Source of the DNA: a virus
Taxonomy: Duplodnaviria > Heunggongvirae > Uroviricota > Caudoviricetes
Length of the DNA stretch: 64,000 nt
Direction: 5' to 3' (one strand)
IMG/VR virus record: IMGVR_UViG_3300037042_007115
The notes beneath the pieces are model-generated. The model ran no database searches and was not told where the DNA came from. It worked only from the letters and a program-made list of their open reading frames with translations. Every line of letters starts with the position of its first letter. The stretch's first letter is position 1. The position numbers and the translations under genes were made by a program. Positions 1 to 64,000 of this stretch are shown here, piece by piece.

Positions 1-201
1 TCAGTACCTGACTGTGATGTTCATATTGCTACAGGATATGCTTTTTCTTCTGGGTTGTGGTTTAGGCACACCTGGGTGGTAAATCCTGCAGATAAGACTT
101 TGTTAGAATGTACACCTACAAAGTTTGACGAGTATTATGGGGTTTGTCTCTCCCATAAAGAGTGTGGTGAATTCATAGAAATACTTGGGGAGGCATAAAC
201 T

Positions 202-468
202 ATGGTTGAGCGAGCTGGGTGTGTTACAGGACCCCGGGGTTTTGGGCCCCGTAAATTTAAGGGGATTATGTATGATCCCTATAAAGTCTACCTATCTAAA
301 CAATGCGACTCTTTCAATCATGAAATACAAAAGCAATATGATTTGGAGAGTCTTGCACAAGCAGAACAAGACCGAGCTACTTTGGTATCAGCAGGAAAGA
401 TAGCCAAACTTGTTAAGAAGAACTTAGGTTCTATCTTAGTTCTTTATATAAGGAGAGTTGAAGTATGA
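202..468 (+). CDS. hypothetical small protein
   Basis: 88-aa ORF from the six-frame track, leading a chain of co-directional, tightly abutting or overlapping ORFs; no recognisable motif. Confidence 0.3.
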   Translation: MVERAGCVTGPRGFGPRKFKGIMYDPYKVYLSKQCDSFNHEIQKQYDLESLAQAEQDRATLVSAGKIAKLVKKNLGSILVLYIRRVEV

Positions 469-875
469 TAGACTATGAAAAAGAACTTAAAAAACTGCCG
501 GAATATCAGGAGCAATATAAGGAACTTCAGAAAGAAATGAAGAAGCTAATAGGGCGGGCTACTAAACTTGAGGAAAAGATTATCGAACTTGAACGGATTT
601 CAGAAGTGTATCTTAAAGTGCCCTTGCATATTTCCTTCTCAAGTGATTATGCCCTTGATGTCGCCGACCTCAGCTACATCAGACATGCACATATCTATCA
701 TAATGCGACTGTACACTCTACCGTTGACAACTGGGGCCTTGAGATCGGAGCCAGAGAGGGGCTAGGACCTTTGGGAACGCACTGGTTGGGTACTGGTCAT
801 ACCAAAGTAGCAGCTATTAATATAGCTAAAGACTGGATTGCCCTGGGCACCTATCCTAAAGAACTTGATGATTAG
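465..875 (+). CDS. hypothetical protein with coiled-coil N-terminus
   Basis: 136-aa ORF; ATGA stop-start overlap with the upstream ORF; N-terminal KELKKLPEYQEQYKELQKEMKK heptad-like pattern. Confidence 0.4.
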   Translation: MIDYEKELKKLPEYQEQYKELQKEMKKLIGRATKLEEKIIELERISEVYLKVPLHISFSSDYALDVADLSYIRHAHIYHNATVHSTVDNWGLEIGAREGLGPLGTHWLGTGHTKVAAINIAKDWIALGTYPKELDD

Positions 876-923
876 CTAGCTTTATATGGTTTTACGCCAT
901 ATTTCTATGTATATAAAGGTGTC
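875..923 (+). promoter_or_regulatory. promoter-family copy A (TAGCTTTATATGG...TATGTATATAAAGGTG)
   Basis: One of five related ~40-50-bp elements immediately upstream of a start codon. TATA-like box plus AAGGTG Shine-Dalgarno. Confidence 0.5.
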
Positions 924-927
924 AAAA

Positions 928-1407
928 ATGGAGAATACAACCAACCCCTGCCCATATATCCCAGTTGATGGGATTGCGGCAGATAAAAACCACCCTGGTT
1001 TAGGAAGCTGCCGGACTTGTATAGGAATTTATGACTGCCCAACTCGCCTCCAGGAAACCTTCTATCCGAGGCCTAACCATACCTGGGAAGCCAAAGCTAC
1101 CTTTGAGTACGCTACCCTACTCTGGGTTAAAGAAATTCCGCCCATGAAAACACAGAGGGCCCGCTGGTGGCTCACTGTCTGGATAGGGGGCAGCGAGTTT
1201 GTAACAGACTGTGCAGAGAAAGAGGATGATTACAAGTGCGATGCTTCTGGCCGGTTTGCTGAGGAAGCAGCCAAGAAGCGGGCTCTTATGGATATGATAG
1301 AGGAATTATCCAGCTCGCTTATTGCTGCAGTATCTGTACCACACGGAATTAACTCGCTCACCTTGACAATTCTCAGGACAAAAGATGGTTCGGGAGCCTG
1401 GGGTTAA
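928..1407 (+). CDS. hypothetical Cys-rich protein (first gene behind promoter-family copy A)
   Basis: Track ORF is 886..1407. Start is placed at the ATG that follows the conserved AAAGGTGTCAAAAATG Shine-Dalgarno-like element shared with copy B. The protein has many Cys/His (CRTCIGIYDCP). Confidence 0.45.
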   Translation: MENTTNPCPYIPVDGIAADKNHPGLGSCRTCIGIYDCPTRLQETFYPRPNHTWEAKATFEYATLLWVKEIPPMKTQRARWWLTVWIGGSEFVTDCAEKEDDYKCDASGRFAEEAAKKRALMDMIEELSSSLIAAVSVPHGINSLTLTILRTKDGSGAWG

Positions 1408-1595
1408 TGTCAAACTCTGACAGCCCCAACTCTTGCCCCCAGTGTGGGAAAGCAGACCACATCAACTGGGTTGCCCCACTGGGCGACCTTTGGAGTGAGG
1501 TTCACAATCGCCGGGTCAACGCCCAGCTCTACCAGTGTGCCGACTGTAAATCCGTCTTCCCCTTCCCAGCTCTAGAGCCCTACGGGAGGTCTTAA
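1407..1595 (+). CDS. zinc-ribbon protein
   Basis: 62 aa with CPQCGK...CADCKS (two CxxC pairs); ATGA-type stop/start overlap. Confidence 0.4.
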   Translation: MSNSDSPNSCPQCGKADHINWVAPLGDLWSEVHNRRVNAQLYQCADCKSVFPFPALEPYGRS

Positions 1596-1597
1596 TC

Positions 1598-1837
1598 ATG
1601 GCTAAGAATTTTAGCCTAATGTTAAATGGGGAATCAATCCCAAGAATTTCTTATCTCCCAGTGGATGGTGTAGAGAAGATAGAGGCACTGATGGACAAGA
1701 TGGCTGAATTACTCCAGCAGGGAAAAATATTCCAGTTTACCCTTGTTCCACTCGACTACGGGAACCGCTCAACCCTTAAGATCCCCGGAGACTTCAATAG
1801 TACTCATGTTTGTATTACAGCAAGGGATGGTTATTAA
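1598..1837 (+). CDS. hypothetical protein
   Basis: 79-aa ORF with a GGAGG-like sequence upstream. Confidence 0.4.
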   Translation: MAKNFSLMLNGESIPRISYLPVDGVEKIEALMDKMAELLQQGKIFQFTLVPLDYGNRSTLKIPGDFNSTHVCITARDGY

Positions 1838-1839
1838 AT

Positions 1840-3458: not shown

Positions 3459-3698
3459 ATGTCTGGCACACGCCGTATCTACAACCGGGCCAAGCAGTGG
3501 TTCAAAGTCCAGATCACTAGCTGGGCTGATGGGTATGAAGATGGAATGTTCAGCCTAAGGCACTGGGGTCTCCACCCATACAAGCAGTATGATACCTTTC
3601 ACTGCCATTGCAGTTGGTGCAGGCCTAAATCATATGAACACGGTTCACTGAGGGTACAGCACAAGGCTGAGATCCGCAGGGAATTGGCAAACCTCTAA
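3459..3698 (+). CDS. hypothetical protein with His/Cys cluster (HCHCSWC)
   Basis: 79-aa ORF. Confidence 0.4.
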   Translation: MSGTRRIYNRAKQWFKVQITSWADGYEDGMFSLRHWGLHPYKQYDTFHCHCSWCRPKSYEHGSLRVQHKAEIRRELANL

Positions 3699-3715
3699 TT
3701 TCTGCTTTTTTGGTT

Positions 3716-3753
3716 AGATATATATGTTTTAGCGTAGCATAGCTATGTATACA
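3716..3753 (+). promoter_or_regulatory. promoter-family copy B (ATATATGTTTTAGCGTAGCATAGCTATGTATACA)
   Basis: Shares GTTTWRCG...AGCATAG.TATGTATA...AAGGTG with copies A and C-E. Confidence 0.5.
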
Positions 3754-3764
3754 AAGGTGTCAAA

Positions 3765-3971
3765 ATGGAAAACTCACTCAACGTAAATAATAGCCGGGTC
3801 TTTGTCCCCTGTGTCTTACCCGGGTTCACTCCCTGTGACCACCGCTGTGTTGCTACTGGTAGGCCTTCAGAAAATGTAATGCGGGTTGAAGTCTGGTGTA
3901 TGTGCTGGCGAGAAAACCACTCAAAGGATAAGGTATTCCACCACTGCGAGAAGGAGTTTAAGGTTGGTTAA
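3765..3971 (+). CDS. hypothetical Cys-rich protein (behind promoter-family copy B)
   Basis: 68 aa. Starts right after the conserved CAAAGGTGTCAAAATG element. N-terminus MEN... resembles the copy-A gene. Confidence 0.45.
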   Translation: MENSLNVNNSRVFVPCVLPGFTPCDHRCVATGRPSENVMRVEVWCMCWRENHSKDKVFHHCEKEFKVG

Positions 3972-5165: not shown

Positions 5166-5670
5166 GGCCCAAACTACCCAGTCTGGCTATGGGCTTAGGC
5201 ATATTAAGTATGGTAGGTTACTTACTTTTTCATGCCGGCCCACAGAGCGTGGGTGCGATGGTCCATCTGAGATTTATGAGCTCTCCTACTGTAGCGGGGG
5301 TTCCGAACCCATTTGGGTAGTCGAAGATAAATTATCCGCCTCCTTGGCCAGAGTTCATACTCCGGTGTGGTATGCTTGCTCATATGATGCCCCTATGAAT
5401 CCGTATAGTCCAGAAGAACTTGAGGTTGTTAAGGTAGAAATCCAAACTAATCTGGAAGAGCCCTCAGATATTCCAACAGAGCTTGAGTATTTAGCTCAGA
5501 GATATAATGACCCGCGACTCAGATCCTACCAGCCCCAACACTATGAGTATGTCTTATCAGAGATGGCAAAGTGGCCCCATAGGTATGAGAAGACCCACTA
5601 TTCCATAGGTGAACTCAAGATGCTGCGCTGGGACCAGGAAGCAGCAGATAAGGTGGACTATGACAAATAG
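5149..5670 (+). CDS. hypothetical protein
   Basis: 173-aa ORF. Confidence 0.4.
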   Translation: MTVKHKAQTTQSGYGLRHIKYGRLLTFSCRPTERGCDGPSEIYELSYCSGGSEPIWVVEDKLSASLARVHTPVWYACSYDAPMNPYSPEELEVVKVEIQTNLEEPSDIPTELEYLAQRYNDPRLRSYQPQHYEYVLSEMAKWPHRYEKTHYSIGELKMLRWDQEAADKVDYDK

Positions 5671-6178
5671 AATCCCACTAATCCGAGTTATTTCTGGGGG
5701 TCAGACCGGTGCTGATCAAGGCGGGCTTCAAGCAGCTTATGAGCTTAGCATTCCCACCGGGGGTTGGACAATTAAAAACTATGGTACAGAAGTAGGCCCA
5801 ATGCCTGAACTAGCCAAATACGGCTTACATTGTCTTGATACTAATAACTATGTGGCAAGAACTGCTCTTAATGCTCAGCAAGGTCACCTAACTATCTGGT
5901 TCGGCTCTATGGACTCAAGGGGATTTCAAGCTACTCGGAGGGAGTGTCAATTAGCTCATAAGCCTTTTGAGGTTATGACCAATAAAGCTAGGAGTATCAT
6001 AGAGACTAGAATCTTTTTATATTATAGGAATTGCAAAGACCCTGAGTTTATTTTGAATGTAGCCGGGAACCGTGAATCAAGCAGCCCGGGAATCCACCAG
6101 GAGGTTTATCAGTCTCTTCTGGCTGTTCTATCTTCTTTAGTTTTATTGCGGGATCAGGGCTGGGACACCATTAAGTAG
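5660..6178 (+). CDS. SLOG-superfamily protein (YpsA / molybdenum-cofactor-carrier-like Rossmann fold)
   Basis: N-terminal VISGGQTGADQGGLQAA matches the SGGQTG(A/V)D signature of the YpsA/MoCo-carrier SLOG family. Start is moved to the ATG at 5660, which overlaps the upstream stop. Confidence 0.5.
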   Translation: MTNRIPLIRVISGGQTGADQGGLQAAYELSIPTGGWTIKNYGTEVGPMPELAKYGLHCLDTNNYVARTALNAQQGHLTIWFGSMDSRGFQATRRECQLAHKPFEVMTNKARSIIETRIFLYYRNCKDPEFILNVAGNRESSSPGIHQEVYQSLLAVLSSLVLLRDQGWDTIK

Positions 6179-7712: not shown

Positions 7713-8018
7713 TTGTGTTATCTATCGGAGATAAATATGTCTACAAAAACTATTAAATGTAATTGTTCCAACGAATACCAAGATGAGGTATATGGTGTGG
7801 GGAATAGAGCCGCCAATGAGACAAGCAATGGTCAGTATCGATGTACCGTCTGTGGAGTGGTAGTAGGATCTGCCCAAACTGTTACAGTATCTAAGAAAGA
7901 GGCAACTAAAGAGAGTCCTACTAAGGCTGGGCCTAGTAAGAGTAAAAAGGCGGAGAAGAAGGGGGAGAAGTCTACAAAGCTTTCAGCAAAGAAAAGTCTG
8001 AAAGGGGGAAAGAGGTAA
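7713..8018 (+). CDS. zinc-ribbon protein with histone-H1-like Lys-rich C-terminal tail
   Basis: CNCS...CTVCG ribbon followed by KSKKAEKKGEKSTKLSAKKSLKGGKR. Confidence 0.45.
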   Translation: MCYLSEINMSTKTIKCNCSNEYQDEVYGVGNRAANETSNGQYRCTVCGVVVGSAQTVTVSKKEATKESPTKAGPSKSKKAEKKGEKSTKLSAKKSLKGGKR

Positions 8019-10740: not shown

Positions 10741-11011
10741 AATGCCCCGAAAAATCAGAGAGCGTGAAAAAATGACAAAACACGGAGCAGACACAGTAGA
10801 ACAAGATTTTATACCACCAACTGCAGAAGAGAATAGGCTGGCACTACGCATACCAGAATATACTATCAATGAGTTGATAACGAAACTTTCAAGCCAATAT
10901 TCTGTCCGTGTGCTCACAGTGGATAAAAACGAGCCATATGTTATTGCCAGCAAAGAAAACCACTGTATTTTCGGAGAGGGGGCAGTAAAAATATTGGTGG
11001 TGAAAGAATGA
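10741..11011 (+). CDS. hypothetical protein
   Basis: Track ORF is 10607..11011. An in-frame ATG at 10741 is chosen to avoid a ~100-nt overlap. Confidence 0.35.
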
Positions 11012-11954: not shown

Positions 11955-11989
11955 TGCACCGAAACTATCACTTTAACACTACTTTAGTG

Positions 11990-12028
11990 AGCTTTATAAG
12001 GTTTAGCGCAGCATTGTAGAGTATAACA
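11990..12028 (+). promoter_or_regulatory. promoter-family copy C (AGCTTTATAAGGTTTAGCGCAGCATTGTAGAGTATAACA)
   Basis: Near-identical to copies D and E over about 35 nt. Confidence 0.55.
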
Positions 12029-12039
12029 GGTGAAACTCT

Positions 12040-12594
12040 ATGGCGGACATAACCTTTCAAGAGCAGTCCCTATCCCGGTTGAAAAAACTTAAGGCATTGG
12101 CCGAAAGGGGAGTAGGCGGAGAGAAAGAGAATGCACAGATGCTCCTTGAGCGGCTTTGTGACAAATACCAAATCTCACCAGATCAGGTTGAATCTTCAGA
12201 TGAGAAGAAACTGCGTTGGTTCCGCTATAGGAAGGGACCAGCTCTTAGGAAGCTTCTTGCGCAATGCATATTTAAAACTCTTGGGAAGGATAGTAAAACA
12301 TTTGGACATGCACATACCAGAGCTAGGGAGTTTGCTGCAGAGTGTACAGCAGCGGAAGGAATAGAAATAGAGCTGGACTATGATTTCTATGCTGATGCTT
12401 TACAGAAAGAGATGACTAGAATGTTAGAGATGTTCATCCAGAAAAATAGCATCTTTCCACCTAACGTAGATTTAGACAGCAGTGGGAAAGAGATTTCAGA
12501 AGAGGATATGCTCCTATACCGGAGTATCAAGAAGCAGACTCGGGTATTACGGATTGGTAACTCCCCGGAGGAAGTTATAGAGGAGAGAGAATAA
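12040..12594 (+). CDS. DUF2786-like protein (behind promoter-family copy C)
   Basis: N-terminal LKKLKALAERGVGGEKENAQMLLERL resembles the DUF2786 signature (LxKLLALAExxxxExEAxxAxxKAxxL), common in phage and plasmid proteins. Confidence 0.5.
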   Translation: MADITFQEQSLSRLKKLKALAERGVGGEKENAQMLLERLCDKYQISPDQVESSDEKKLRWFRYRKGPALRKLLAQCIFKTLGKDSKTFGHAHTRAREFAAECTAAEGIEIELDYDFYADALQKEMTRMLEMFIQKNSIFPPNVDLDSSGKEISEEDMLLYRSIKKQTRVLRIGNSPEEVIEERE

Positions 12595-12783
12595 TGGGCC
12601 AGCAAGAAGCCATAGATGCATTACGTGAAAAGCGTGATGAATGCGACAGAGAAATTAGTCATGAGATGGATGAAAACTTCCAGAAAAGCTGGAAGGATAA
12701 GAAAGAAGCATATCAGTACGCTCTTAAAGTGCTAGGGGCTATTTGATACACTGGCCAAATCTTGGCCTTATTCTCTTTTAGTA

Positions 12784-12821
12784 AGCTTTATAAGGTTTAA
12801 CGCAGCATAGTTGTATGTAAC
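12784..12821 (+). promoter_or_regulatory. promoter-family copy D (AGCTTTATAAGGTTTAACGCAGCATAGTTGTATGTAAC)
   Basis: Identical to copy E over 38 nt. The ATG follows directly. Confidence 0.55.
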
Positions 12822-13133
12822 ATGACGTACTCAGAGAATGGAAGAGATCAGTGGGACCAGGCAAGCTTACTTGCTCGTAAGAATTCAGAGCAGTTAGTTT
12901 CCCTTAGGGGCCGCTGGGAAGATGAGCAGGAATATGAAAACTTTGATGAATACATCAAGGTTATTACAGCCCTGTTTCCGGGCTTTGAACTTTTTGCCTT
13001 CAAGAAGTCGAAGTTTAGCTTTAAGATCAAGATGCCAAGGCCGGTCCCGGATATGATTGTTCGGGTAGGTTTGACTCAAGTTACTTGGAAAATGGACATT
13101 ACCAAGGAACAGCGAGCTAGCATCAAGAAATAA
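12822..13133 (+). CDS. hypothetical protein (behind promoter-family copy D, near-leaderless)
   Basis: 103 aa. The ATG directly abuts the conserved ...GTATGTAAC element with no Shine-Dalgarno sequence. Confidence 0.45.
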   Translation: MTYSENGRDQWDQASLLARKNSEQLVSLRGRWEDEQEYENFDEYIKVITALFPGFELFAFKKSKFSFKIKMPRPVPDMIVRVGLTQVTWKMDITKEQRASIKK

Positions 13134-13155
13134 CTCAATCCCTCTTCTTTTAACT

Positions 13156-13194
13156 AGCTTTATAAGGTTTAACGCAGCATAGTTGTATGTAACA
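13156..13194 (+). promoter_or_regulatory. promoter-family copy E (AGCTTTATAAGGTTTAACGCAGCATAGTTGTATGTAACA)
   Basis: Identical to copy D. Followed by AGGTG and an ATG. Confidence 0.55.
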
Positions 13195-13204
13195 AGGTGT
13201 TGAA

Positions 13205-46755: not shown

Positions 46756-46796
46756 TCTTCATAACAATATGGTTCCCCGAACCTAATAAAGGTTCT

Positions 46797-51546: not shown

Positions 51547-54500
51547 TCATTCACTCCCCCAATCCCCGAAGTGTGTATCTGTTACAATGGGTACTGTAAG
51601 ATTCACCCCCAACTTGGCCAATAGTGGCGGACACTCTATGAGCTTCTTTATCTCGGGTAGAAGTTTATCTGCTATATCATCACGTATTTCCATAAGGATA
51701 GCATCATGAATAGTTCCTACGATGTTTAATACATCCTTTCCATAGGTCGTACTTAGTGCAACCACAGCCATCATCGTCATATCACTTGCAAATCCCTGAA
51801 CAGGCGCGTTTATTGAGTTGCGTTCTGCCTGTGCACGTACTCCCTCATCGGGTGACATAATCTCCGGCAGGTGTCTAATACGCCCATCAAGGCATTTTAC
51901 CTGTCCATACTGCCTTACCATCACTTTTTGCCGCTGGTGCCACTTTGGAAGCTCAGAATAGGTTTCAAAGAACCTCTGTCTAAATGCGGTAGCTTCCTCT
52001 ATTGTGAGGTCCGTTTCATATTTATCCCGGGCGTATTCCTGGAACTTCTTCTCCCGCATGCCGTAAAGGAACCCAAAATTACAGTTTCCCTGTATTCCCA
52101 CTTTATTGTCTCTTCTTATAACGATATTTTCTGCCTGGACTTGTACACAATATGCCATATGACTGCCGGGTATCTTTTGGAAGCTTAGGTGTGTTCTCGA
52201 GTCGAGTCGTCCGCCGGGCCTATAGGTAATTTTGTACCCCTCAGTTCTTTTCTTATCTCTAGGGGGCATAACATATAGTACTGCTCGTGTCCCAGAAGTA
52301 CAGGCCATAGCTTGCATTATATCCGCACTTTGTCGAACATGTGTAGTAAATTTTGTATATTTTTGAGCAAATTTTTCACTTGACCAAGAGTCCCAGTAAG
52401 CTGCTTCATCGAGATAAACTATTGCCGGGATGTCTGTTAGGCAGGACCAGGAGAGATTTTTATTATCATCAAGATACGGCTTTATCATCCCCATAATTTT
52501 CGGTGAGTTCATTTCAAAGATAGTTGCTCCATCAGCCCTTGTTCTACGGGTATAACTTACCCCATAGGCATCTAGAAGTTGTTTACATCTGTCTATTTTG
52601 TGCTGCTTTTTAAACCCAAATCTAAGGCGGGTGTGGTCTTTAAATGACCCATCAGCTGCGATCATAGCTAAGATTCGAGTTTCAGTTTCTGTTAGTTTAT
52701 ACTCCGTTCTTTTAAGGAGCCCAGCAGAGAATAGATAAGTATTTTGAGGAACTGAATCTGCGCGCCTCTTCTCTACACGTTCCGTGTTCCTATTGAAATA
52801 CAAAATTTCGTGATCTGCTGTTACTAATAGATCATTATTTCTATCTATGAAACTATACAGCTCTCTATTATTTTGGGATTGAAAAGCTATAGGCTTAGTA
52901 AACGATATTTCTTGCGTTTCTTGGAAATACTGCGCTACTTCATCTGTGCCATTATATTTATCAAATCTTACCCAACCGGCTTTTGTGAGTATTTCAGTAT
53001 CCCCTGAGAAGCATGCCTTGGCTTTCTTTCGCTCATCCTTAGTAATTAGCTCAGGGGGTTTTCCAGTGATAAGGGAAGCTGTCTTCCGGTGTATGTCGCC
53101 CTTCGGGTCATTGAAGATACCTATCATTGTTGGGTCCCCGCTTACCATAGCTGCTATCCTAAGCTCAACTTGGGAGTAATCACACTCTAATAGTCTCCAT
53201 CCTGGTGGGGCGCCTATAAGAGTTCTAATCTTTTTGTCACGTGGAACCTGCTGGAGGTTAGGGTCACTACATGAATTATGAACACAGAGCTCATTTGCTA
53301 TAAAATTATGCGTATCTTCTACCTCTATATCATACACAGGGAAGATTCCCGGTAGTTTCTCCACATAAGTAATCATATGATTCTGGGGCTTGGGCTTGGC
53401 GTTATCTGGTAGTTTGGCCAGTGTTCGGGTCCTACCATAAACTACTCTAGCTTCCTTAGTTTTACTTACAGTTTCCCCAGTAAAATGTAAATAGTTATAA
53501 TCACCGCGTGACCTATGCAGGGCCATAACATGCTCCCCATGATGATATCGTTTTCTCCATTTGATATATTTTCCCCCCGCTAGATCTTCTACTTTGATAT
53601 AACTTCCGGAGGTTAACCGAATTGGGTGGTTCCCTGTAGCATCCAGAAAACCCTCAGTATGCCCCCCTTGCCCCACCCAATGCACTCTATAACAGGGCTT
53701 GCTGCCCGTAAGCCCAGAACTCTTGACTTTTTTCAAAGTTAACTTTAATTCATCATCAAACGAATATACTAAGTCTCCCGTCTTTATATCTTGGATGGGC
53801 CTAGTTCCACCCGGTATCATGACTTCTGTACCTTCTCTTAAGCAGAGTCTGCCAGTAACGGTCCCGTGCAGCTTAAAGTTAGGATGTAGTCTTTCGTGCG
53901 GACCTAAGAATTTCTTCCACCCCTCAATAAAGCTCGATACCTGCTTAGCCAGCTCCCTATGTTTGAGTAATAAATCAATTCCTTCGTGTTGACCTTTCAG
54001 TCGTTGAAGAATACCTTCTGCAGTAGAGGGTGCACCAGACTTAGTAAGTTCTAATGGTACCAACTTCCAATCCTCGAATAAGATCTTACCAACCTGCTTA
54101 GGACTGTTCCAGTTTACCCCAGGAGCCATAGCCTCTAGTTTATCATGTACCTCAGCGAGTTCAGCTTTAAGGACAATTTCCAGTGCGGCTAGACGCTCTT
54201 TATGGACGAATACGCCATGACACTCAATATCTTCAAAGGCTTCAAACGCCGGCATAATAAGGAACTTAAAAAGCTTAAGGAGATCAGCATTCTTCATTAA
54301 CTGACCACGCTGCATTTTATATAACCTGAGAGTGTACAAAACATCATAGCCACAATACTCATACATCTTCTCTAGGTCTGGGCCTTGTCCTCTTTTATCT
54401 TCAGATGAGATATCATAAGCTGGAGCATTAAGATGAACCTTAGCCAGATACTTTAGGCCACATGGCTCATTCTCATTCAAGATATGGGCTGCCATCATGG

Positions 54501-55419
54501 TATCAAAAGTAATTGGGAACCTAATATCATAGTGTACCCGGAGCCACCTATTATCAAACTTCCCATTCTGAGTGACAATCTTCTTGCCTTTCATCATAAG
54601 TAAGATTTCTTGGAGGCCTTCCTTCATGCCACCTTTAGTCTTGAAGATAAGATTCTCACCAGACATAGGCAGCACCCACTGTCTCTCCTGTGTCAGCTCA
54701 TTATCCGCATATCTGGAGATGCCCAAACAGTTAATATCTGCGCCTTCTTCTCTCGGGTCTAAACAAGTGGTTTCTAAGTCAAAGCCAATTACTGGGCAGT
54801 CTTTGAGGTCATGCAGCATTTCTTTGAACTGCTCTACATTTCTTATGATAGTAAGGTTTAAGCCGGTACTAGGCTTCCAGGTACCATTGATTATTTCAAA
54901 GAACTTTTTCATATCTGATTTAAGCGGGGCTTCTTTCTTTGGATCCCGGAGTGCTGCAGCTGGATGAAATGCAGGTAAGTATGTTATACCCTCTTTTTCA
55001 ATAGGAACCCCATGAATATCCATAATCCCGCTGGCTCCTTTGCCTAAGACGCCTTTTAAGGCTACCGCACCCATAACAATGATGAATTTAGGTTTAACCT
55101 CATCTATTTCTCTTTGAAGATGCACCTTACATGCTTTAATTTCAGCTTGTGTAGGAGATTCATTTTCAGGTGCAGAACAGTGAATTAAATGAGTCAAATA
55201 AAGGGTATCTCTACTTACTCCATTCTCCATCAAAATTCGGTCTAGGAGTCGCCCGGCATTTCCGGGGAAGGGTTTTGTAAGCTCTGATTTATAATTAGTG
55301 GGTGCCTCCCCTATTATCATAACATTACAGGGGGTAGGGCCCTGGCCCATAACGCATACTAACGGGGAACTTGCATACCGGGTGCAAAGTTTGCAACTTG
55401 AATCTCCAAAAACAGGCAT
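51547..55419 (-). CDS. family-A DNA polymerase with N-terminal family-4 UDG-like domain and 3'-5' exonuclease domain, interrupted by two inteins
   Basis: UDG-like region: CKLC Fe-S Cys pair, GEAPT (GE[AG]PG-like motif A), F.GNAGRLL, HPAAALR (HPSxxLR-like motif B). Exonuclease motif I IGFDLETT. PolA pre-motif A TGRL//SCSDPNLQQVP. Motif A CDYSQVELRIAA. Motif B RKKAKA//CNFGFLYG. Motif C IHDAIL (HDA rather than HDE). Confidence 0.9.
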   Translation of the reverse strand: MPVFGDSSCKLCTRYASSPLVCVMGQGPTPCNVMIIGEAPTNYKSELTKPFPGNAGRLLDRILMENGVSRDTLYLTHLIHCSAPENESPTQAEIKACKVHLQREIDEVKPKFIIVMGAVALKGVLGKGASGIMDIHGVPIEKEGITYLPAFHPAAALRDPKKEAPLKSDMKKFFEIINGTWKPSTGLNLTIIRNVEQFKEMLHDLKDCPVIGFDLETTCLDPREEGADINCLGISRYADNELTQERQWVLPMSGENLIFKTKGGMKEGLQEILLMMKGKKIVTQNGKFDNRWLRVHYDIRFPITFDTMMAAHILNENEPCGLKYLAKVHLNAPAYDISSEDKRGQGPDLEKMYEYCGYDVLYTLRLYKMQRGQLMKNADLLKLFKFLIMPAFEAFEDIECHGVFVHKERLAALEIVLKAELAEVHDKLEAMAPGVNWNSPKQVGKILFEDWKLVPLELTKSGAPSTAEGILQRLKGQHEGIDLLLKHRELAKQVSSFIEGWKKFLGPHERLHPNFKLHGTVTGRLCLREGTEVMIPGGTRPIQDIKTGDLVYSFDDELKLTLKKVKSSGLTGSKPCYRVHWVGQGGHTEGFLDATGNHPIRLTSGSYIKVEDLAGGKYIKWRKRYHHGEHVMALHRSRGDYNYLHFTGETVSKTKEARVVYGRTRTLAKLPDNAKPKPQNHMITYVEKLPGIFPVYDIEVEDTHNFIANELCVHNSCSDPNLQQVPRDKKIRTLIGAPPGWRLLECDYSQVELRIAAMVSGDPTMIGIFNDPKGDIHRKTASLITGKPPELITKDERKKAKACFSGDTEILTKAGWVRFDKYNGTDEVAQYFQETQEISFTKPIAFQSQNNRELYSFIDRNNDLLVTADHEILYFNRNTERVEKRRADSVPQNTYLFSAGLLKRTEYKLTETETRILAMIAADGSFKDHTRLRFGFKKQHKIDRCKQLLDAYGVSYTRRTRADGATIFEMNSPKIMGMIKPYLDDNKNLSWSCLTDIPAIVYLDEAAYWDSWSSEKFAQKYTKFTTHVRQSADIMQAMACTSGTRAVLYVMPPRDKKRTEGYKITYRPGGRLDSRTHLSFQKIPGSHMAYCVQVQAENIVIRRDNKVGIQGNCNFGFLYGMREKKFQEYARDKYETDLTIEEATAFRQRFFETYSELPKWHQRQKVMVRQYGQVKCLDGRIRHLPEIMSPDEGVRAQAERNSINAPVQGFASDMTMMAVVALSTTYGKDVLNIVGTIHDAILMEIRDDIADKLLPEIKKLIECPPLLAKLGVNLTVPIVTDTHFGDWGSE
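52084..53013 (-). mobile_element. intein 2 (310 aa) with LAGLIDADG-type homing-endonuclease domain, inserted in PolA motif B
   Basis: Residues 803-1112: N-terminal CFSGDTEILTKAG (block A), ILAMIAADGSF (LAGLIDADG), C-terminal ...VGIQGN, with +1 Cys. Removing it restores RKKAKACNFGFLYG. Codon-level check: the Cys-1 codon TGC lies at 53011..53013 on the - strand. Confidence 0.7.
53275..53844 (-). mobile_element. mini-intein 1 (190 aa) inserted within the PolA TGRL|SS motif
   Basis: Residues 526-715: N-terminal CLREGTEVMIPGG (block A), GFLDATGNHPI (block B, T..H), C-terminal VYDIEVEDTHNFIANELCVHN, with +1 Ser. No endonuclease domain. Removing it restores TGRLSCSDPNLQQVP. Confidence 0.75.
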
Positions 55420-55547
55420 AAATTATCCTATTAATGTTCGGATTACGGGATAATAAAGGTCACTAAATTTTTAGTGAGAGAAGGAGTAGGACAGTATATG
55501 GGAGTAAAAATCTATGGGGGTAGTCATGACTATCCCCATCTGTTGCT

Positions 55548-59103: not shown

Positions 59104-59742
59104 TTAATCATCTCCTTTTTTGATTTCAATAACGGGTCCCGTCTCAATCACCGGTACATACCCCCGTTCTCTAACCTTAGCTAGGAATTTTTCATCAGAA
59201 GCTTGGGCGGCAGTTAATACCTGCTGGATTTCTTGTACCATAAATGCATAGACAATACGTTCTGGGTGGTCAATATCAAACTCATTTGCATTTGGATGGG
59301 CTAAGAATACCCAAGATCCCGGAGCAATTCCCTTAGGCACAGATGGAATACGTTTTGATACTCCTGTTTGTATAGCTTCCCTGATGAAGTCTTTGGGTGT
59401 TGGATAGAACCTTTCTCCTATCCACATTAAACCCGCTGAATTAGGCGGGTAACATACTGGACAACTTGTATCACACTCACAGGTTTGTTCTGGAAGAACC
59501 GGAATATCCGCTTCCTCGGCTTCTTCAGCAAGGTGGATTCCAAACATCTTCATTGGGTCAAAGATACGGACACTTCTAAGAGACCGTATTGTTTCCCCAC
59601 AGCAAGGACAGACTGGTATTTTCATAGGGAGCCTGTCGCACTTAGTAGATACCCCCATACCGAAAAGGTACAGTCCTGGGTATCTAAATCCGCATCCCCT
59701 CTTGACTCGGGGAATTTCTTTTACTTCGGCTTCAGTATTCAT
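59104..59742 (-). CDS. zinc-finger protein
   Basis: 212 aa with CPCCGE and CECDTSCPVC. Confidence 0.4.
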   Translation of the reverse strand: MNTEAEVKEIPRVKRGCGFRYPGLYLFGMGVSTKCDRLPMKIPVCPCCGETIRSLRSVRIFDPMKMFGIHLAEEAEEADIPVLPEQTCECDTSCPVCYPPNSAGLMWIGERFYPTPKDFIREAIQTGVSKRIPSVPKGIAPGSWVFLAHPNANEFDIDHPERIVYAFMVQEIQQVLTAAQASDEKFLAKVRERGYVPVIETGPVIEIKKGDD

Positions 59743-60074
59743 TCATGCCTCCATGATTACATCATAATGGCATGCAGGACCATATTAAGGTTACTCTAAA
59801 AAGGCTAGAGATCTAGCAAAAACCGAGAAAATTAAGCGTATTTGGATAGTGGGGTAAGGGTCAACGTACCCAAGCTTCTAAAGTTCTTTGATCAAAAGGG
59901 CGGATCTGCAGTTTGCAGGCTGAGGGTTTCTTCTTTTTCTGTTCACCTAAAAATTTAGGGGTAATTTCTATGAGTTTAGGTTTAGCGTCTGTCATAAAAT
60001 CATCACCAAAGGATAAAATTATATGGGGAGTTTAAATACTTAAAGGTTTTTGGCCCCCGGGGCCGGCCGGAGAG

Positions 60075-60509
60075 TTATTCCGGTAAAGGTGCCTTTTTAG
60101 TTCTTTTAATAAATTCTACAAGTTTAGGATGAAGTTTTCTAAGGACTACTAAAAACTGTGCGTCAGACTTATAGTAATGTACAGGTTTATAGGAGAGCGT
60201 AGTGTACTCGGGTCTCATCTTAAAATACTCCAGGGCCCCCATAGGTAGTCCTTTCTGGGTCGGAGGTATATAGTCCCAAATAAGGGTAGCATATTCCCCG
60301 GAGCTTCCTGGAGTGGGCTCAGCAAAGAACCTGATCTCATAGACGCTGCGACCAAACTCAGCATAAAAATCTCTTGATGGGTAGAAGCCTAAGAGGTCGC
60401 CCTCCAAGTGTGTCTGTCGAGAGTCTAGGAATTTTTGGAACCTATCCCAGATAACTTGAGATTTATGGTTTAGGTTCAAAAATAGTAAATTATTGTCTAT
60501 TTCGAGCAT
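60075..60509 (-). CDS. hypothetical protein
   Basis: 144-aa ORF. Confidence 0.4.
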   Translation of the reverse strand: MLEIDNNLLFLNLNHKSQVIWDRFQKFLDSRQTHLEGDLLGFYPSRDFYAEFGRSVYEIRFFAEPTPGSSGEYATLIWDYIPPTQKGLPMGALEYFKMRPEYTTLSYKPVHYYKSDAQFLVVLRKLHPKLVEFIKRTKKAPLPE

Positions 60510-61066
60510 GAGATAATACGATTCGGTGTGTAAAGATATACTTTGATACCCGCTTCTATTAGTAACTCTATGCCATCAGTTTTTCGGTACTTTTCCAAGA
60601 AGTATACTGACGAGATACCAGAATTAATTAGTAATTTTGCACAATCGAGGCATGGGGATAGACTACACCACAACTCTGCTCCTTCTACAGAGATACCATG
60701 TCGGGATGAAAAAGCTATTGCATTGCTTTCTGCATGTATTGTTCTGATACATCCACCATTTTCTCCAATTTTACACCCCACATCTATGCAGTGAGGTAAT
60801 CCACTAGGAGATCCACCATAGCCCATAGAGATGATTCGATTTTCTCTTACTATTAAAGCAGAGACTTGGGCTCTTGTGCAAGTAGACCTCTTTTTTACTA
60901 CTTCAAGGATCCCTACAAACATTTCTGCTCGAGATAGGCGAGTTTTTCTTGTAAGGTCAGTTTCAGGTTCATTATTGTGGTTGCATGGGGTTGTTATAGA
61001 GCATGAGCAAAGGTCCCGTTTAAACACTGGTGGATGACGGGCTGCTGCTTTTTTAGCCATAACCAT
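60497..61066 (-). CDS. dCMP deaminase (cytidine/deoxycytidylate deaminase family)
   Basis: HAESNAI (zinc-binding H/CAE) and SPCLDCAKLL (PCxxC). Confidence 0.7.
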   Translation of the reverse strand: MVMAKKAAARHPPVFKRDLCSCSITTPCNHNNEPETDLTRKTRLSRAEMFVGILEVVKKRSTCTRAQVSALIVRENRIISMGYGGSPSGLPHCIDVGCKIGENGGCIRTIHAESNAIAFSSRHGISVEGAELWCSLSPCLDCAKLLINSGISSVYFLEKYRKTDGIELLIEAGIKVYLYTPNRIISCSK

Positions 61067-61545
61067 TATTCATCATCCTCTGGGTCTACCCCTTCATTTT
61101 CAAAATCTTCTGCCTCTGTTTCGGGTTCTGATAATTTTCCTGGACTTGTAGTGGGCCGAGGAGCAGCCGCTTCAGCTTGAGCTTTTTTAGCCTTTCGTAC
61201 CAATCTCCTTTCCTTCCTGCGGCGTTTCTTCTCTTGTTCCTTGTCTTCATCTAATTCTTGTGTTTCTGCTACAGCTTTTGGAATTGGCTCACTTAATACT
61301 TGTGGTACTGCGGGAGTTACTGGAGCAGGTATAGATATATTTGCTTCTTCTGGAATTTCTTCACCTTCATCTGGTTTTACATTAAGAGGTAGTGTTCCTG
61401 TTACATGGGGCTTTCCAGACCGAGTTTGTTTAATTCGGGCTAGGGCAGTATCCCAACTGCCCACTACCGTATGGCTACTTCTGGGGAATGGATAATGGAG
61501 GGAAATATTTTCTGTCTGCTGGAAGACCTCTTGGGGTTGTTCCAT
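61066..61545 (-). CDS. low-complexity acidic/basic protein
   Basis: 159 aa with KKRRRKERRLVRKAKKAQAE patch and acidic termini. Confidence 0.35.
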   Translation of the reverse strand: MEQPQEVFQQTENISLHYPFPRSSHTVVGSWDTALARIKQTRSGKPHVTGTLPLNVKPDEGEEIPEEANISIPAPVTPAVPQVLSEPIPKAVAETQELDEDKEQEKKRRRKERRLVRKAKKAQAEAAAPRPTTSPGKLSEPETEAEDFENEGVDPEDDE

Positions 61546-62228
61546 TAGAATACACCTTTCCCATCCTTCTTGAAAAGGTGCAGACTCATTACGAAATGAG
61601 TAAAGCGGCCAACTCTATAACCTGTCTTTTCTGCGATGTATCTTTGCATCATCACCGCCAGATAAACATCATTGTTGTAGTGGGTTGCAAAGTCACAAGA
61701 CCTTTGAATATAGGTCAAGTGAAGTAGTCCGCTACGAATCTGGATTTGATAGCCAATGGTACAGGGTATACGAGACACTCCGCCCATATACTGAATGTCA
61801 CTGGGTTGATACACTGCTAAAAAGAGCTGCCTGGAGTCTGGATCTACTTTAATTCTTTTGATGATACGTTCAATCTGGTCATACTGTGCAAATCTTTCCG
61901 GGTAGTTATAACCAAACTTCCCATCAGCACATCTAAATTCAGTCCAGACTTCCTTCCTGAGTTCCCAGGCCTCTCCGGGGTTTACCGGGGGTCTAGTAAT
62001 TCTTTCCCTGAATTCCGCATCGGCCCAAGGCTGTGTCGGAGTGAGATCCTCTGTACGCGGGTTTATAACCGTATAGGTATAATTCTGGATCTCAAGAGTG
62101 TCAAACGCCGGGTCATGCTCGACTATTTTGTCCTGATAAGATTTGGGGTGGATTTTTATCCCCATCTCAACCAGGTCTCTTTTGATTTCGCCAAGTGCTT
62201 CCTTTTTGAAATCAACATAAATTCGCAT
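61545..62228 (-). CDS. thymidylate-synthase-family (ThyA fold) pyrimidine-dNMP C5-methylase or hydroxymethylase
   Basis: IPCTIGYQIQIRSGLLHLTYIQRSCDF aligns residue-for-residue with ThyA [26 protein letters not shown] (catalytic Cys, RSxD phosphate-binding). Downstream HYNNDVYLAVMMQRY aligns with ThyA PFNIASYALLVHMM. No ThyX RHRxxS motif. Confidence 0.65.
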   Translation of the reverse strand: MRIYVDFKKEALGEIKRDLVEMGIKIHPKSYQDKIVEHDPAFDTLEIQNYTYTVINPRTEDLTPTQPWADAEFRERITRPPVNPGEAWELRKEVWTEFRCADGKFGYNYPERFAQYDQIERIIKRIKVDPDSRQLFLAVYQPSDIQYMGGVSRIPCTIGYQIQIRSGLLHLTYIQRSCDFATHYNNDVYLAVMMQRYIAEKTGYRVGRFTHFVMSLHLFKKDGKGVF

Positions 62229-62232
62229 TAAA

Positions 62233-62640
62233 TTACTCCCCCTTGGGGATTATGGGTTTTTTCTTTTTATTCATTACACCCCGGCTTAGATTTTCTACTG
62301 ATAAAATATGTCTTATCATTTGATCCGGGTCACTTTTTGATACAGATCGGAATGTATTAGAAGTATCATCTTCTTTAATTTTAGAATAGGAAATAATTAC
62401 TTGGTCTCCTACCATAAACATACTTATAATTCCAGAAGAAGCAAAAAATCTTTTTCCATTCTCTAGATAGACTAGGCCACCCTTGGTATCAACTAGGTAT
62501 TTTTCTATTACTACGCCTATAGTAATTCCATATTTCTTTTTGGTGCTTGGTCGGAGGATGTAAAATAAGCACGTTCCAGCTAATATAGATCCACATATTA
62601 GAAAGGCGAGTGCTACCGGGCTAATTAACAGTTCTTGCAT
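62233..62640 (-). CDS. membrane-anchored hypothetical protein
   Basis: 135 aa with an N-terminal TM helix. Confidence 0.4.
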   Translation of the reverse strand: MQELLISPVALAFLICGSILAGTCLFYILRPSTKKKYGITIGVVIEKYLVDTKGGLVYLENGKRFFASSGIISMFMVGDQVIISYSKIKEDDTSNTFRSVSKSDPDQMIRHILSVENLSRGVMNKKKKPIIPKGE

Positions 62641-62647
62641 ACTTACC

Positions 62648-63418
62648 TCAGTAATTACTTGTTTGTCTGAATTGATTTACTTTGTTCTTACGGAAATACA
62701 GGTCATCCAGGCGGGCCGCATCAATATCATAGGCAATACAAAGAATGAAAAAGTTCTCCCAAGTATAGTAGAGATGCTGTTTGAAAAGATTTTCATCTGT
62801 AACCATGTGGGTATTTTTCCATACCTTATTCTTTAAGGTGTTACACATAAGACCTAAAGAAGTAATTGTTCTTGACATTGCCTCATGCAAATCTCTCCGG
62901 GGCTTTCGGGCATGTACCCGTTCATGTGTGAGTAAATAAAAGATAGTTCCAAGAGGATCTTCCTGTTTCTCAGTACTAGACCCGCTCATAATACCATTAT
63001 ACACCTGTTCTGGAGTAACTCCGGCAAGAATAGTCAGTTCTGTTAAGAAGTGTAATGCATCTGCTACTTCTTCATGGACGTGGTCTAGTAATTCTGGGTG
63101 GATATCATATGCTTCCCGGGCCTCTGCAAGTTCTTCAGTTATACGCCATGCAAAGTCTTTTAATCTAGCTTGCCCAAAGCGGCAATGTAGACTAACAGGT
63201 ATATCTTTAGTTTGGAGGAGTCCATTTTTTTCCTCGATTTCTTCATACTTTTCCATAAGAAGTCTTTGCTTAGTGAATATTTCACGTAGTCGGTCTTCTG
63301 ATGCCGTGGTTTTTGAATCAAAATCTTGGACGTTCATGCTATCAGCTCCACAACTTTTTGCGGGTGTATATAACATGAGGTTTCCATCTATATATGTTTC
63401 ACTTTTTTCCCCGGCCAA
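62648..63418 (-). CDS. MazG-like / dimeric-dUTPase-like all-alpha NTP pyrophosphohydrolase
   Basis: EELAEAREAY and HEEVADALHFLTEL acidic helix motifs. Confidence 0.5.
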   Translation of the reverse strand: MAGEKSETYIDGNLMLYTPAKSCGADSMNVQDFDSKTTASEDRLREIFTKQRLLMEKYEEIEEKNGLLQTKDIPVSLHCRFGQARLKDFAWRITEELAEAREAYDIHPELLDHVHEEVADALHFLTELTILAGVTPEQVYNGIMSGSSTEKQEDPLGTIFYLLTHERVHARKPRRDLHEAMSRTITSLGLMCNTLKNKVWKNTHMVTDENLFKQHLYYTWENFFILCIAYDIDAARLDDLYFRKNKVNQFRQTSNY

Positions 63419-63537
63419 TTTTTACTCCGAGATCCCATGATATATTAATGCGTTTTATGGTCAGGCCCCAGAGAGCTATCTTTATTAGGTTAGGGAGTAT
63501 TATTAGTATATATAATTTTATAATTGGAGTTTGAACC

Positions 63538-63693
63538 ATGGCGAAGAGAAAAGAACAAACCTATGGCGGAATGTCAATTAAACAGGATGCCGGACGCATT
63601 CAGTTTCCAGTAGGGCCAGATGGAAGAGTAAGTATCTGTGGGAAGAAGAAACGGCTTTCCATGAACGATGATGTAAAGAAATTTAGGCAGTAA
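63538..63693 (+). CDS. small basic protein (51 aa)
   Basis: GGAGTTTGAACCATG ribosome-binding site. First gene after the divergent region at 63419..63537. Not in the ORF track (under 60 aa). Confidence 0.3.
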   Translation: MAKRKEQTYGGMSIKQDAGRIQFPVGPDGRVSICGKKKRLSMNDDVKKFRQ

Positions 63694-63724
63694 GTCTGCC
63701 CTTTTACTTATAAGAGGTGATAAC

Positions 63725-64000
63725 TATGTCAAAAAATAGGATGAAAAAGCCCTTGGGGCCCACTAAAGTATGTCCTTATTGTAGCTACGGCGCAGGTATT
63801 GTAGGAGACATTGATCATGGAGTTTGGAATACCCGGGTCCCAGACCCCAAAGAGTGTCCCCGATGCAAAAGGTATTTGAGGAAGAAAGCTCTTACAGTTA
63901 TTTTGCCTCCGCGGATTGAACCAGTAGATGTCATGAGATACTCTGGTCCTCCTGGACCTATTATCGCGGCATTGCTGAATAATGATGCACGGGAAATTCT
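63725..64000 (+). CDS. zinc-ribbon protein, runs past the window end (partial)
   Basis: AGAGGTGATAACTATG ribosome-binding site; CPYCSYG...CPRCK. Confidence 0.35.

Follow-up and report, generated by a model that had tools for sequence, protein, structure and literature searches.

Promoter architecture and an S-layer-like domain suggest an archaeal host for a freshwater virus-like element with a phage-type replication module

About a dozen isolated viruses of methanogens are known. Methanogen promoters carry an 'A box' TTTATATA (TWTATATA in M. jannaschii), with TATA around -30 to -23; in a Methanosarcinales methanogen the distance between the B recognition element (BRE)/TATA and the start site is 19-22 nt, and leaderless mRNAs make up about 16% of the total. 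At the cell surface of methanogens, DUF3821 corresponds to domains D1-D2 of the Methanospirillum hungatei S-layer protein and has been reported only from Methanomicrobiales. Among bacterial viruses, a replication module with a family A DNA polymerase (PolA) is found in the CP3/CPD4 group of Clostridium perfringens phages and, alongside it, in the types of Serratia phage Serbin, Pseudomonas phage PMBT14 and Yersinia phage P744. We know of no methanogen virus of at least 100 kb with a family A polymerase, and a literature search found no published PolA-encoding archaeal tailed virus. Here we analysed a 64-kb stretch of DNA (the window) from the IMG/VR virus record IMGVR_UViG_3300037042_007115. 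Its GC content is about 42% and it holds about 136 open reading frames (ORFs), mostly short and arranged in strand blocks. The original prediction, made from the letters alone, was of an archaeal host despite a phage-like replication module. We found partial support for it: the promoter motif, compared with controls, and a DUF3821 protein speak for such a host, whereas the proposed tRNA intron, PGF-CTERM anchor and taxonomy of best hits do not. The host is probably an archaeon, and a methanogen-like one, judged first by promoter architecture and then by the DUF3821 domain; this falls short of proof.

We searched for promoter motifs by expectation-maximisation on upstream regions, seeded from 400 random words. 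The top motif of the window was AACC-TTTATATG, and with the last 15 nt left out it was aGaAAcC-TTTAT. The extended consensus, TTAGnAA(G/C)C-TTTATAW, corresponds to a BRE-like element followed by a methanogen-type TATA box. At 10 bits or more, the position weight matrix (PWM) had 14 matches in the window; ten of these fell within the intergenic 9%, and nine of the ten faced a downstream gene, 35-81 nt ahead of its start. In upstream regions the PWM gave 14 matches in sense orientation and one in antisense, with 0.8 +/- 0.9 in shuffles. Distances from box to start were 28-75 nt (mostly 35-57), with modes near 35 and 46-48 nt. Boxes of the type TTTATA(A/T)(A/G)G had been described 27-35 nt upstream of starts; the boxes proved to be non-random (14 sense matches against 0.8 shuffled), but that spacing is only one class within the observed range.

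The same code was run on two controls. With the archaeal control, the Methanothermobacter virus PhiF1, it returned GAAACA-TTTATATA, a textbook BRE and TATA box, and with the bacterial control, Clostridium phage CP3, it returned TTTTCTTTGACATA, which holds the sigma-70 -35 box (TTGACA). Observed and expected counts of two words in intergenic DNA were as follows.

Window: TTGACA 3 observed, 3.5 expected; TTTATA 18 observed, 7.2 expected
Relatives: TTGACA 5 observed, 5.5 expected; TTTATA 22 observed, 7.6 expected
PhiF1 (archaeal control): TTGACA 4 observed, 3.1 expected; TTTATA 27 observed, 8.2 expected
CP3 (bacterial control): TTGACA 17 observed, 5.0 expected; TTTATA 27 observed, 12.9 expected

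There was no enrichment of TTGACA in the intergenic DNA of the window. A simple scan of three 20-kb segments gave more sigma-70-type sites than shuffled sequence in just one segment, and a clear excess of intrinsic terminators in none. The last T of the sigma-70 -10 hexamer is essential and invariant. Most of the strong boxes of the window end in G (TATAAG, TATTAG, TATTTG, AATATG) and therefore do not fit this hexamer. They do fit the methanogen 'A box' TTTATATA/TWTATATA and the 19-22 nt BRE/TATA geometry. The promoters thus appear to be of archaeal type, without sigma-70 -35/-10 pairs, and this reading of the sequence is the strongest evidence that we have on the host. We also considered oligo-T terminators and rejected them as evidence: T runs without hairpins follow many stop codons, but T5+ runs were found at 18 and A5+ runs at 25 of 136 genes. 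The individual boxes are listed below.

12778-12795, + strand: TTAGTAAGC-TTTATAAGG; TATA starts 35 nt before the ATG of 12822-13133; top PWM score, 19.7 bits; near-leaderless mRNA predicted
11984-12001, + strand: TTAGTGAGC-TTTATAAGG; 47 nt before the ATG of 12040; predicted leader has GGTGA
13150-13167, + strand: TTAACTAGC-TTTATAAGG; the downstream gene probably begins at an ATG near 13204, after AAGGTG
3715-3726, + strand: TAGA-TATATATG; fourth, diverged copy of a promoter cassette, upstream of 3765
55449-55466, - strand: TTAGTGACC-TTTATTATC; 38 nt before the PolA start; 17.4 bits
32922-32939, - strand: AACC-TTTAAATG; upstream of the Band_7 gene; also kept in related loci L001 and L012; behind it come about 23 variable nt and the conserved leader, with a hairpin and GGAG
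16340-16357, + strand: CACC-TTTATAAT; TATA at -31 to -24 from the ATG at 16380, leaderless geometry; L012 has TACC-TTTATATC
42616-42633, - strand: AAAAACC-TTTATTTG; 48 nt before 42289-42576
46782-46799, - strand: AAGAACC-TTTATTAG; 35 nt before 46441-46755
59780-59797, - strand: AGTAACC-TTAATATG; 46 nt before 59104-59742; leader has GGAGG

Combined with methanogen geometry, boxes at -31 (the 16377 gene) and -35 (12822, 46441) predict leaders of 0-5 nt, and boxes at -42 to -57 predict leaders of 11-26 nt. The leaders behind the -42 to -57 boxes carry GGTGA, GGAGG or GGAG. The earlier suggestion that 12822 and the 16377 gene are near-leaderless therefore held, with boxes 35 nt before the ATG of the former and 31 nt before ATG 16380 of the latter, where the arrangement is kept in L012. 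Phylogenetic footprints were compared for the Band_7 gene in the window, L001 and L012, for SNF2 in the window, L001 and L007, and for the 16377 gene in the window and L012. All three sets showed one conserved A/T box, about 23 variable nt, and then a conserved Shine-Dalgarno leader or start codon; no second conserved box at -35 spacing was seen in these footprints. Two of the genes concerned are the following.

31083-32873, - strand: SPFH/Band_7 protein, 596 aa (Pfam Band_7 1.1e-18; synteny)
16377-17027, + strand: polytopic membrane protein without a Pfam or NCBIfam match

The second of these had been called a rhomboid, but neither Pfam nor NCBIfam found such a domain in it; the sole trace of Rhomboid is a weak precomputed match on the L012 orthologue. 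The Band_7 protein is also encoded in L001 (12281-14071) and L012 (14119-15912), and both its promoter box and a leader hairpin, ACCAGnn...CTGG before GGAG, are kept. Elsewhere on the + strand a cassette of about 55 nt is present in four copies (11970-12042, 12764-12824, 13136-13206, 3696-3767), three of them near-identical, with a mean column identity of 74%. It consists of a T-run, TTAGnnAGC-TTTATAAGG, and then GTTTARCGCAGCATWG... up to the start codon. The cassette promoter is combined with a Shine-Dalgarno leader at 12040, about 13204 and 3765, whereas 12822 has the same promoter but no such leader.

The second line of evidence is a surface protein.

27388-28059, + strand: secreted, membrane-anchored DUF3821 protein, 223 aa; signal peptide, homologue of the first DUF3821 domain at aa 26-105, three N-X-S/T sequons, Thr/Pro-rich spacer, C-terminal transmembrane (TM) helix

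It matched Pfam DUF3821 (PF12863) with 28.5 bits at a gathering cutoff of 23. All three viral copies passed the DUF3821 threshold, and so did five of the seven homologues of about 500 aa that were tested, at profile positions 1-88 only. AlphaFold2 gave a mean confidence (pLDDT) of 49.6 in a first model and 81.5 in a model of aa 1-135; the protein has one structured domain, the rest being linker and TM helix. Searches of PDB structures and a PDB sequence-profile search with the DUF3821-like domain returned no significant match. The full S-layer architecture (D1-D2 plus four immunoglobulin (Ig)-like domains, about 500 aa or more) is not present in 27388-28059. As a domain restricted to archaea, DUF3821 would point to an archaeal host, but it is represented here by a single partial-domain match, and we give it moderate weight.

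When 1.84 billion cluster representatives were searched with a profile of the three viral copies, 157 proteins matched; E was 1e-10 or lower for 48, and the proteins of about 500 aa reached 1e-25. Many of the matches are about 480-600 aa long, begin with a signal peptide, share the N-terminal domain at 31-39% identity and end in an anchor. Three such proteins of 500-600 aa, each with a D1-like N-terminal domain, a signal peptide and a C-terminal anchor, have a readable context (L014, 5121-6620; L015, 6966-8606; L027, 5520-7307). Their contigs hold small ORFs, methylases, resolvases and transposases, as well as IS605 OrfB and glycosyltransferases; one has a weak match to an archaeal pilin N-terminus and another a PKD-repeat surface protein. 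These three proteins may be surface proteins of other mobile elements, not cellular S-layer proteins, and could be spike or surface proteins of small archaeal viruses. A second metagenome scan gave five short contigs with DUF3821-like genes, in which neither a host marker nor an RNA gene was present.

Upstream of the DUF3821-like gene, about 870 nt (26517-27387, + strand) have no gene call in the public contig, and blocks of this region are kept in L012. A conserved stretch at the end of ORF 27028-27378 translates to SLWERFKYWLHG. The region may contain an unrecognised small gene or RNA.

The replication genes of the window are of a different affinity. They are listed here together with the genes of nucleotide metabolism.

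51547-55419, - strand: fusion of uracil-DNA glycosylase (UDG), 3'-5' exonuclease and family A DNA polymerase, 1290 aa (Pfam UDG 5.5e-24, DNA_pol_A_exo1 2.5e-18, DNA_pol_A 7.4e-75, Intein_splicing 4.7e-10)
53275-53844, - strand: PolA intein 1, aa 526-715, TGRL/CLREG...VHN/SCSDPNLQ; Hint_2 and Intein_splicing matches, colinearity gap against CP3 PolA
52084-53013, - strand: PolA intein 2, aa 803-1112, inside motif B, AKA/CFSGD...IQGN/CNFGFLYG; insertion relative to CP3 and L009 PolA
42661-44919, - strand: SNF2-family helicase (Pfam SNF2-rel_dom, Helicase_C)
47632-48720, - strand: PD-(D/E)XK/Cas4-like nuclease (Pfam PDDEXK_1 1.6e-18; 34% to CP3)
46797-47672, - strand: AAA_24 (Sak4-like) ATPase (Pfam AAA_24 3.6e-25; 35% to CP3)
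45938-46444, - strand: DUF669 protein, companion of Sak4-type modules (Pfam DUF669 2.4e-10; 43% to CP3)
25042-25359, + strand: VRR-NUC/Hjc-like small nuclease, weak (Pfam VRR_NUC 15.6 bits, below cutoff; 43% to a CP3 ORF)
60497-63418, - strand: nucleotide-modification block, with dCMP deaminase (60497-61066), ThyA-like protein (61545-62228) and dUTPase_2-like protein (62648-63418), all by Pfam, and two unknown ORFs between them
32959-33582, - strand: thymidylate kinase (Pfam 3.7e-33; NCBIfam TIGR00041 123.9 bits)
24590-25039, + strand: homologue of the C-terminal (glycyl-radical) end of NrdD, 149 aa (Pfam NRDD 1.8e-13, profile positions 505-560 of 562)

The phage-like module of the original prediction was recovered for PolA, the Cas4-like and Sak4-like proteins and SNF2, by Pfam and by homology to CP3; ParB was not detected by Pfam, and VRR-NUC stayed below the threshold at 15.6 bits. 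The predicted inteins in PolA were confirmed as two, from Hint and intein-splicing matches and colinearity with CP3. Intein 2 has no Pfam match of its own, and its boundaries are taken from the sequence. The true start of SNF2 is likely 20 codons downstream of the ORF start, the public copy being 732 aa long. The order of the co-located module (UDG-PolA, SNF2, PD-(D/E)XK, AAA_24, DUF669) is the same in L001. The NrdD-like protein is a free-standing glycyl-radical end of anaerobic ribonucleotide reductase with a Zn-ribbon-like part. Some bacteria have a spare-part radical domain for pyruvate formate-lyase, and by analogy the NrdD-like protein may be such a spare part; a glycyl-radical protein points to an anaerobic host. 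A circularly permuted YpsA (SLOG) family protein is encoded at 5609-6178 (+ strand; Pfam 2.9e-26). SLOG domains bind nucleotides or modified bases, and this protein may belong with the nucleotide-modification genes.

Several results weigh against an archaeal host. The best-hit taxonomy that had been proposed as a check came out mostly on the bacterial side, with bacteriophages and bacterial prophages at 32-49%. The nearest isolate matches of PolA, the ThyA-like protein, dCMP deaminase, and the Sak4-like and Cas4-like proteins are bacteriophages (33-49%; for PolA, 33-43% by tblastn). In 185,579 species-representative genomes, relatives of SNF2 were found only in prophages of Christensenellaceae, Pumilibacter and Atopobiaceae (39-40%). 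No direct link to a host emerged, and no close relative turned up in any labelled genome. Exceptions are the SNF2 of a Methanobacterium provirus and the NrdD-like protein. The former, from a provirus that sits at one end of a 1.45-Mb contig in a Methanobacterium metagenome-assembled genome (MAG), is the nearest named SNF2 by identity (48% over the helicase core, against 32% to CP3), the remaining named matches being bacterial MAGs; the latter has as its sole isolate-virus match the NrdD of Methanobacterium virus PhiF1 (46-49%). The ThyA-like protein shares 48.6% identity with its counterpart in the CP3 group; its top NCBIfam model is that of methanogens, though the score of 68 bits is far below the cutoff of 174.55.

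On the same side of the balance, the DUF3821 match covers only profile positions 1-80 of 204, and the three homologues of about 500-600 aa with readable context lie in mobile-element-like metagenome contigs of unknown host. A pattern scan of representative genomes with the DUF3821-like alignment gave 30 pattern matches and no confirmed cellular copy. The PGF-CTERM-like anchor of the original prediction did not match NCBIfam TIGR04126 or Pfam PF18204, either with the whole protein (E <= 0.01) or with its 42-aa tail (E <= 1); the C-terminus has no P-G-F tripeptide, although its architecture (Thr/Pro-rich spacer, TM helix, short basic tail) is PGF-CTERM-like. The intron at 37/38 of a tRNA could not be upheld. 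An ARAGORN intron-mode 'tRNA-Pro' in 26517-27387 has poor stems, a 99-nt intron at 39/40 and no Rfam support, and the only supported tRNA is intron-less. Codon usage was as described earlier (AGA about 0.30 and AGG about 0.23 of Arg, ATA 0.30 of Ile; 0.30, 0.24 and 0.37 in the Methanobacterium provirus), as was the moderate GC content, but the AGG and ATA fractions overlap those of bacterial controls, and we rejected codon usage as a discriminator of hosts. The transcription start sites are unmapped predictions. Finally, the source is listed as Lake Zurich, where abundant Methanomicrobiales are no obvious expectation.

One rival explanation is a bacterial host, e.g. an anaerobic Firmicute or another lake bacterium. 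The boxes would then be phage-specific or -10-only promoters, and the DUF3821-like domain a horizontally acquired Ig-like adhesion domain. Nine genes are common to the window and CP3 (32-49% identity), for both PolA and SNF2 every top isolate match is a virus of bacteria, and the SNF2 relatives in representative genomes belong to prophages of Firmicutes and Actinobacteria. Of 136 genes, 68 have a Shine-Dalgarno-like motif between -18 and -4, compared with 11-21 in control windows. The DUF3821-like fold, as modelled, is a common beta-sandwich. The promoters fit this explanation poorly, however: TTGACA is unenriched, the footprints have no -35-like second box, the boxes lack the invariant T of the -10 hexamer, and CP3, with the same module and the same method, does yield TTGACA. 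Read as -10 elements, the boxes of the 35-nt class would imply leaders about 20 nt long that have no Shine-Dalgarno site. DUF3821 also scored above its curated threshold in the three viral copies and most of the 500-aa homologues tested. As for the module itself, further matches of PolA and SNF2 (27-44%) come from phages that infect Serratia, Pseudomonas, Yersinia, Streptomyces, Thermoanaerobacterium and Faecalibacterium; phages of three or more bacterial phyla (Proteobacteria, Firmicutes, Actinobacteria) carry the module, with much the same identity in each. It does not track the host and is therefore uninformative on host domain. We regard a bacterial host as unlikely, while giving it more credit than the explanations that follow.

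An archaeal host could also carry the window as something other than a virus, i.e. as a large plasmid or extrachromosomal element with a captured phage replication module. Capsid, portal, terminase and tail genes were found neither in the window, nor in the 8 kb beyond it on the Lake Zurich contig, nor in about 65 kb of related loci, and a weak integrase-like match lies just past the window. The gene content is nevertheless typical of large viruses (polymerase with inteins, nucleotide-pool module, tRNA, dense short ORFs in strand blocks), and homologous modules of known context are all in phages or prophages. Moreover, the window is only part of a genome. Positions 19065-64000 are contained with 0 mismatches in contig 88257 of SRR11849211 (the Lake Zurich metagenome), which extends about 13.5 kb past the window end. 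Syntenic relatives (SNF2 71% identical) are on a 101,656-bp ENA contig and more distant ones (SNF2 49%) on a 200,826-bp contig, and an identical DUF3821 protein is listed on a 178,173-bp JGI contig. The overlap with a longer contig and the size of the relatives' contigs show the window to be an internal piece of a bigger genome, of at least 77 kb and probably 100-200 kb. A structural module could sit in the 35-135 kb that lie outside the sequence read in the relatives' contigs of 101 and 200 kb. A non-viral element is, in our estimate, improbable.

Further searches for relatives returned little. There was no nucleotide-level match to the window among 50,697 phage records, in which about 2,300 aa of other ORFs also had no match; PHROGs gave nothing for eight of ten window proteins tested, and a metagenome scan with a protein from the window start had no match. 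The unmatched ORFs and the PHROGs result are minor points in favour of an archaeal host. A scan of viral contigs with SNF2 gave distant relatives only, the closest of which (L005, 47% identical) has ordinary tailed-phage genes. Past the window end, by about 5.1-6.2 kb, an ATP-dependent DNA ligase with adenylation and OB domains is encoded (L011, 6035-7162), which is at most 29% identical to any isolate phage ligase. The weak integrase-like ORF and a methyltransferase are nearby.

Same-strand neighbours are no more than 10 nt apart or overlap in 68 of 105 cases, and start codons include GTG and TTG; the Shine-Dalgarno excess and this tight packing point to a prokaryotic host. A eukaryotic host, with the window belonging to a giant-virus-like or polinton-like entity, is very improbable: TATA-type boxes, Lys-rich tails, the layout of the 27388-28059 protein with its signal peptide, N-glycosylation sequons, stalk and TM helix, the ATP-dependent DNA ligase past the window and the lake plankton source would suit it, but Shine-Dalgarno motifs at 68 of 136 genes, the packing and GTG/TTG starts just described, and a Sak4/Cas4-like/DUF669/SNF2 module known from prokaryotic viruses, with no giant-virus hallmark gene seen, do not.

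Other features of the window are as follows.

28416-28498, + strand: tRNA-Leu(CAA), intron-less, C at position 33 (ARAGORN; Rfam tRNA 45.3 bits in a 2.5-kb local search)
7713-8018, + strand: Zn-ribbon protein with Lys-rich C-terminal tail (sequence; weak TFIIB zinc-ribbon match below cutoff)
19095-19481, - strand: acidic protein with Lys-rich C-terminal tail (sequence; no Pfam match)
48768-49427, - strand: AIM24/TIGR00266-family protein (Pfam 6.5e-55; NCBIfam 115 bits)

The tRNA-Leu was missed by a whole-window Rfam run at the gathering threshold. U33 is nearly universal in tRNAs, and homologous tRNAs with U33 are found in L012 (about 10860-10945) and L001 (about 21920-22005). Its 15-48 pair, judged by eye, is A-U in the window and L012 and G-C in L001, which is ambiguous on the host. 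The two Lys-rich tails that had been likened to histone H1 are present, but they have no family assignment and no domain specificity and are thus not diagnostic. A third basic-tailed protein (26076-26516, - strand) ends in an (AEKKPA)n repeat and a Lys/Ala-rich tail. The AIM24/TIGR00266 protein is well conserved, yet its family is rare in viruses, with matches in two of the 50,697 phage records.

With a methanogen-like archaeon as the preferred host, the results can be assembled into a scheme. The motifs with their placement and conservation, the domain homologies and the comparisons with controls are observed in it, whereas the start sites, transcription by the polymerase of the host, the lineage of that host and the part played by the S-layer-like protein are inferred. 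The element would be the internal part of a large dsDNA virus or virus-like element, and its host most likely a Methanomicrobiales-related methanogen of lake water or sediment. The archaeal RNA polymerase of the host would read its genes, TATA-binding protein (TBP) and transcription factor B (TFB) binding TTAGnAA(G/C)C-TTTATAW. Transcription would start about 20-23 nt past the box and give either near-leaderless mRNAs (box at 31-38 nt) or Shine-Dalgarno leaders (box at 42-57 nt), and downstream genes of the tightly packed operons would use Shine-Dalgarno sites. A replisome of its own, of bacteriophage ancestry and mobile across host phyla (UDG-PolA, SNF2, Cas4-like, Sak4-like, DUF669), would copy the genome, and the ThyA-like/dCMP deaminase/dUTPase-like/Tmk set would reshape the nucleotide pool. 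The small glycoprotein would show a host-type S-layer first domain on a membrane anchor and presumably inserts into or caps the S-layer; it might serve in the exclusion of other viruses, in exit or in virion attachment.

A broader proposal is put forward tentatively, with somewhat less than even confidence. The window and its relatives on contigs of 101 to 200 kb may form a lineage, so far undescribed, of large viruses that infect freshwater methanogens (Methanomicrobiales or their kin) and combine a phage-derived replisome, BRE/TATA control and display of an S-layer D1 domain, which would be shared with small-genome mobile elements (L014, L015, L027) and would indicate a common strategy of S-layer docking or imitation. 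If the assignment to an archaeal host is true, a viral replication module can pass between bacteria and archaea nearly intact, while the promoters are rewritten for the new host. Control-checked promoter architecture would then be a predictor of host domain where gene homology misleads, and lake methane producers would be under an added top-down control. The D1-like protein offers a handle for finding hosts and for studying entry and exit through a proteinaceous archaeal envelope. Among methanogen viruses, a large genome with a phage-derived, intein-bearing PolA replisome, archaeal promoters and an S-layer D1 mimic would be new.

Compared with known systems, the DUF3821 protein resembles the M. 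hungatei S-layer protein (Mhun_2263/2513) in its signal peptide, D1-like domain, sequons and Thr/Pro-rich spacer before a C-terminal anchor. It differs in that it has 223 aa and one domain instead of six Ig-like ones, and in that a plain TM helix, with no match to PGF-CTERM, serves as its anchor. The promoters share with the BRE/TATA promoters of methanogens an A/T octamer, TTTATAWR, after an A-rich element, and a geometry that fits starts about 20-23 nt downstream and some leaderless mRNAs. In contrast to these, the window has (G/C)C beside the box and an extra conserved TTAG upstream, and the last two positions of the box are often AG or TG, not TA.

With the CP3/CPD4 group the window shares UDG-exo-PolA, SNF2, PD-(D/E)XK, AAA_24, DUF669, a VRR-NUC-like protein, ThyA-like protein, dCMP deaminase and a dUTPase_2-like protein. 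CP3 has 52 kb at 34% GC, structural and lysis genes (terminase, tape measure, amidase) and TTGACA/TATAAT promoters, whereas the window comes from a much larger genome and has two PolA inteins, BRE/TATA-type boxes and no structural or lysis gene in view.

PhiF1, whose host is Methanothermobacter, is alike in its promoter (GAAACA-TTTATATA compared with aGaAAcC-TTTATA), a UDG-fused replicative polymerase, a PD-(D/E)XK nuclease, a methanogen-type ThyA and the NrdD end that is 46-49% identical to 24590-25039. Its polymerase is DnaE-type, not PolA, it carries a pseudomurein endoisopeptidase for the Methanobacteriales wall, and the genes common to the two are limited to the NrdD fragment and to UDG and ThyA, whose similarity is weak (24-28%). 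The Methanobacterium sp. MAG provirus (L009; GCA_050950605.1, JBMNHX010000005.1, 934-22259) has its SNF2 beside an exo-PolA and shows the pairing of SNF2 with a family A polymerase inside an archaeal genome. Its PolA is only about 30% identical and has neither UDG nor inteins, and its SNF2 lacks the 290-aa N-terminal region of the window's. Small and integrated, L009 lies at the end of the archaeal contig and also encodes a serine recombinase, a DpnII-type restriction-modification system, Bro-N/ANT proteins and a protein with an NrS1-like primase-polymerase domain. With the DnaE-UDG of PhiF1 and the PolA and SNF2 of L009, bacterial-type replicases are thus already present in methanogen viruses. 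The original view of a PolA-encoding archaeal virus as an unusual lineage stands only to our knowledge.

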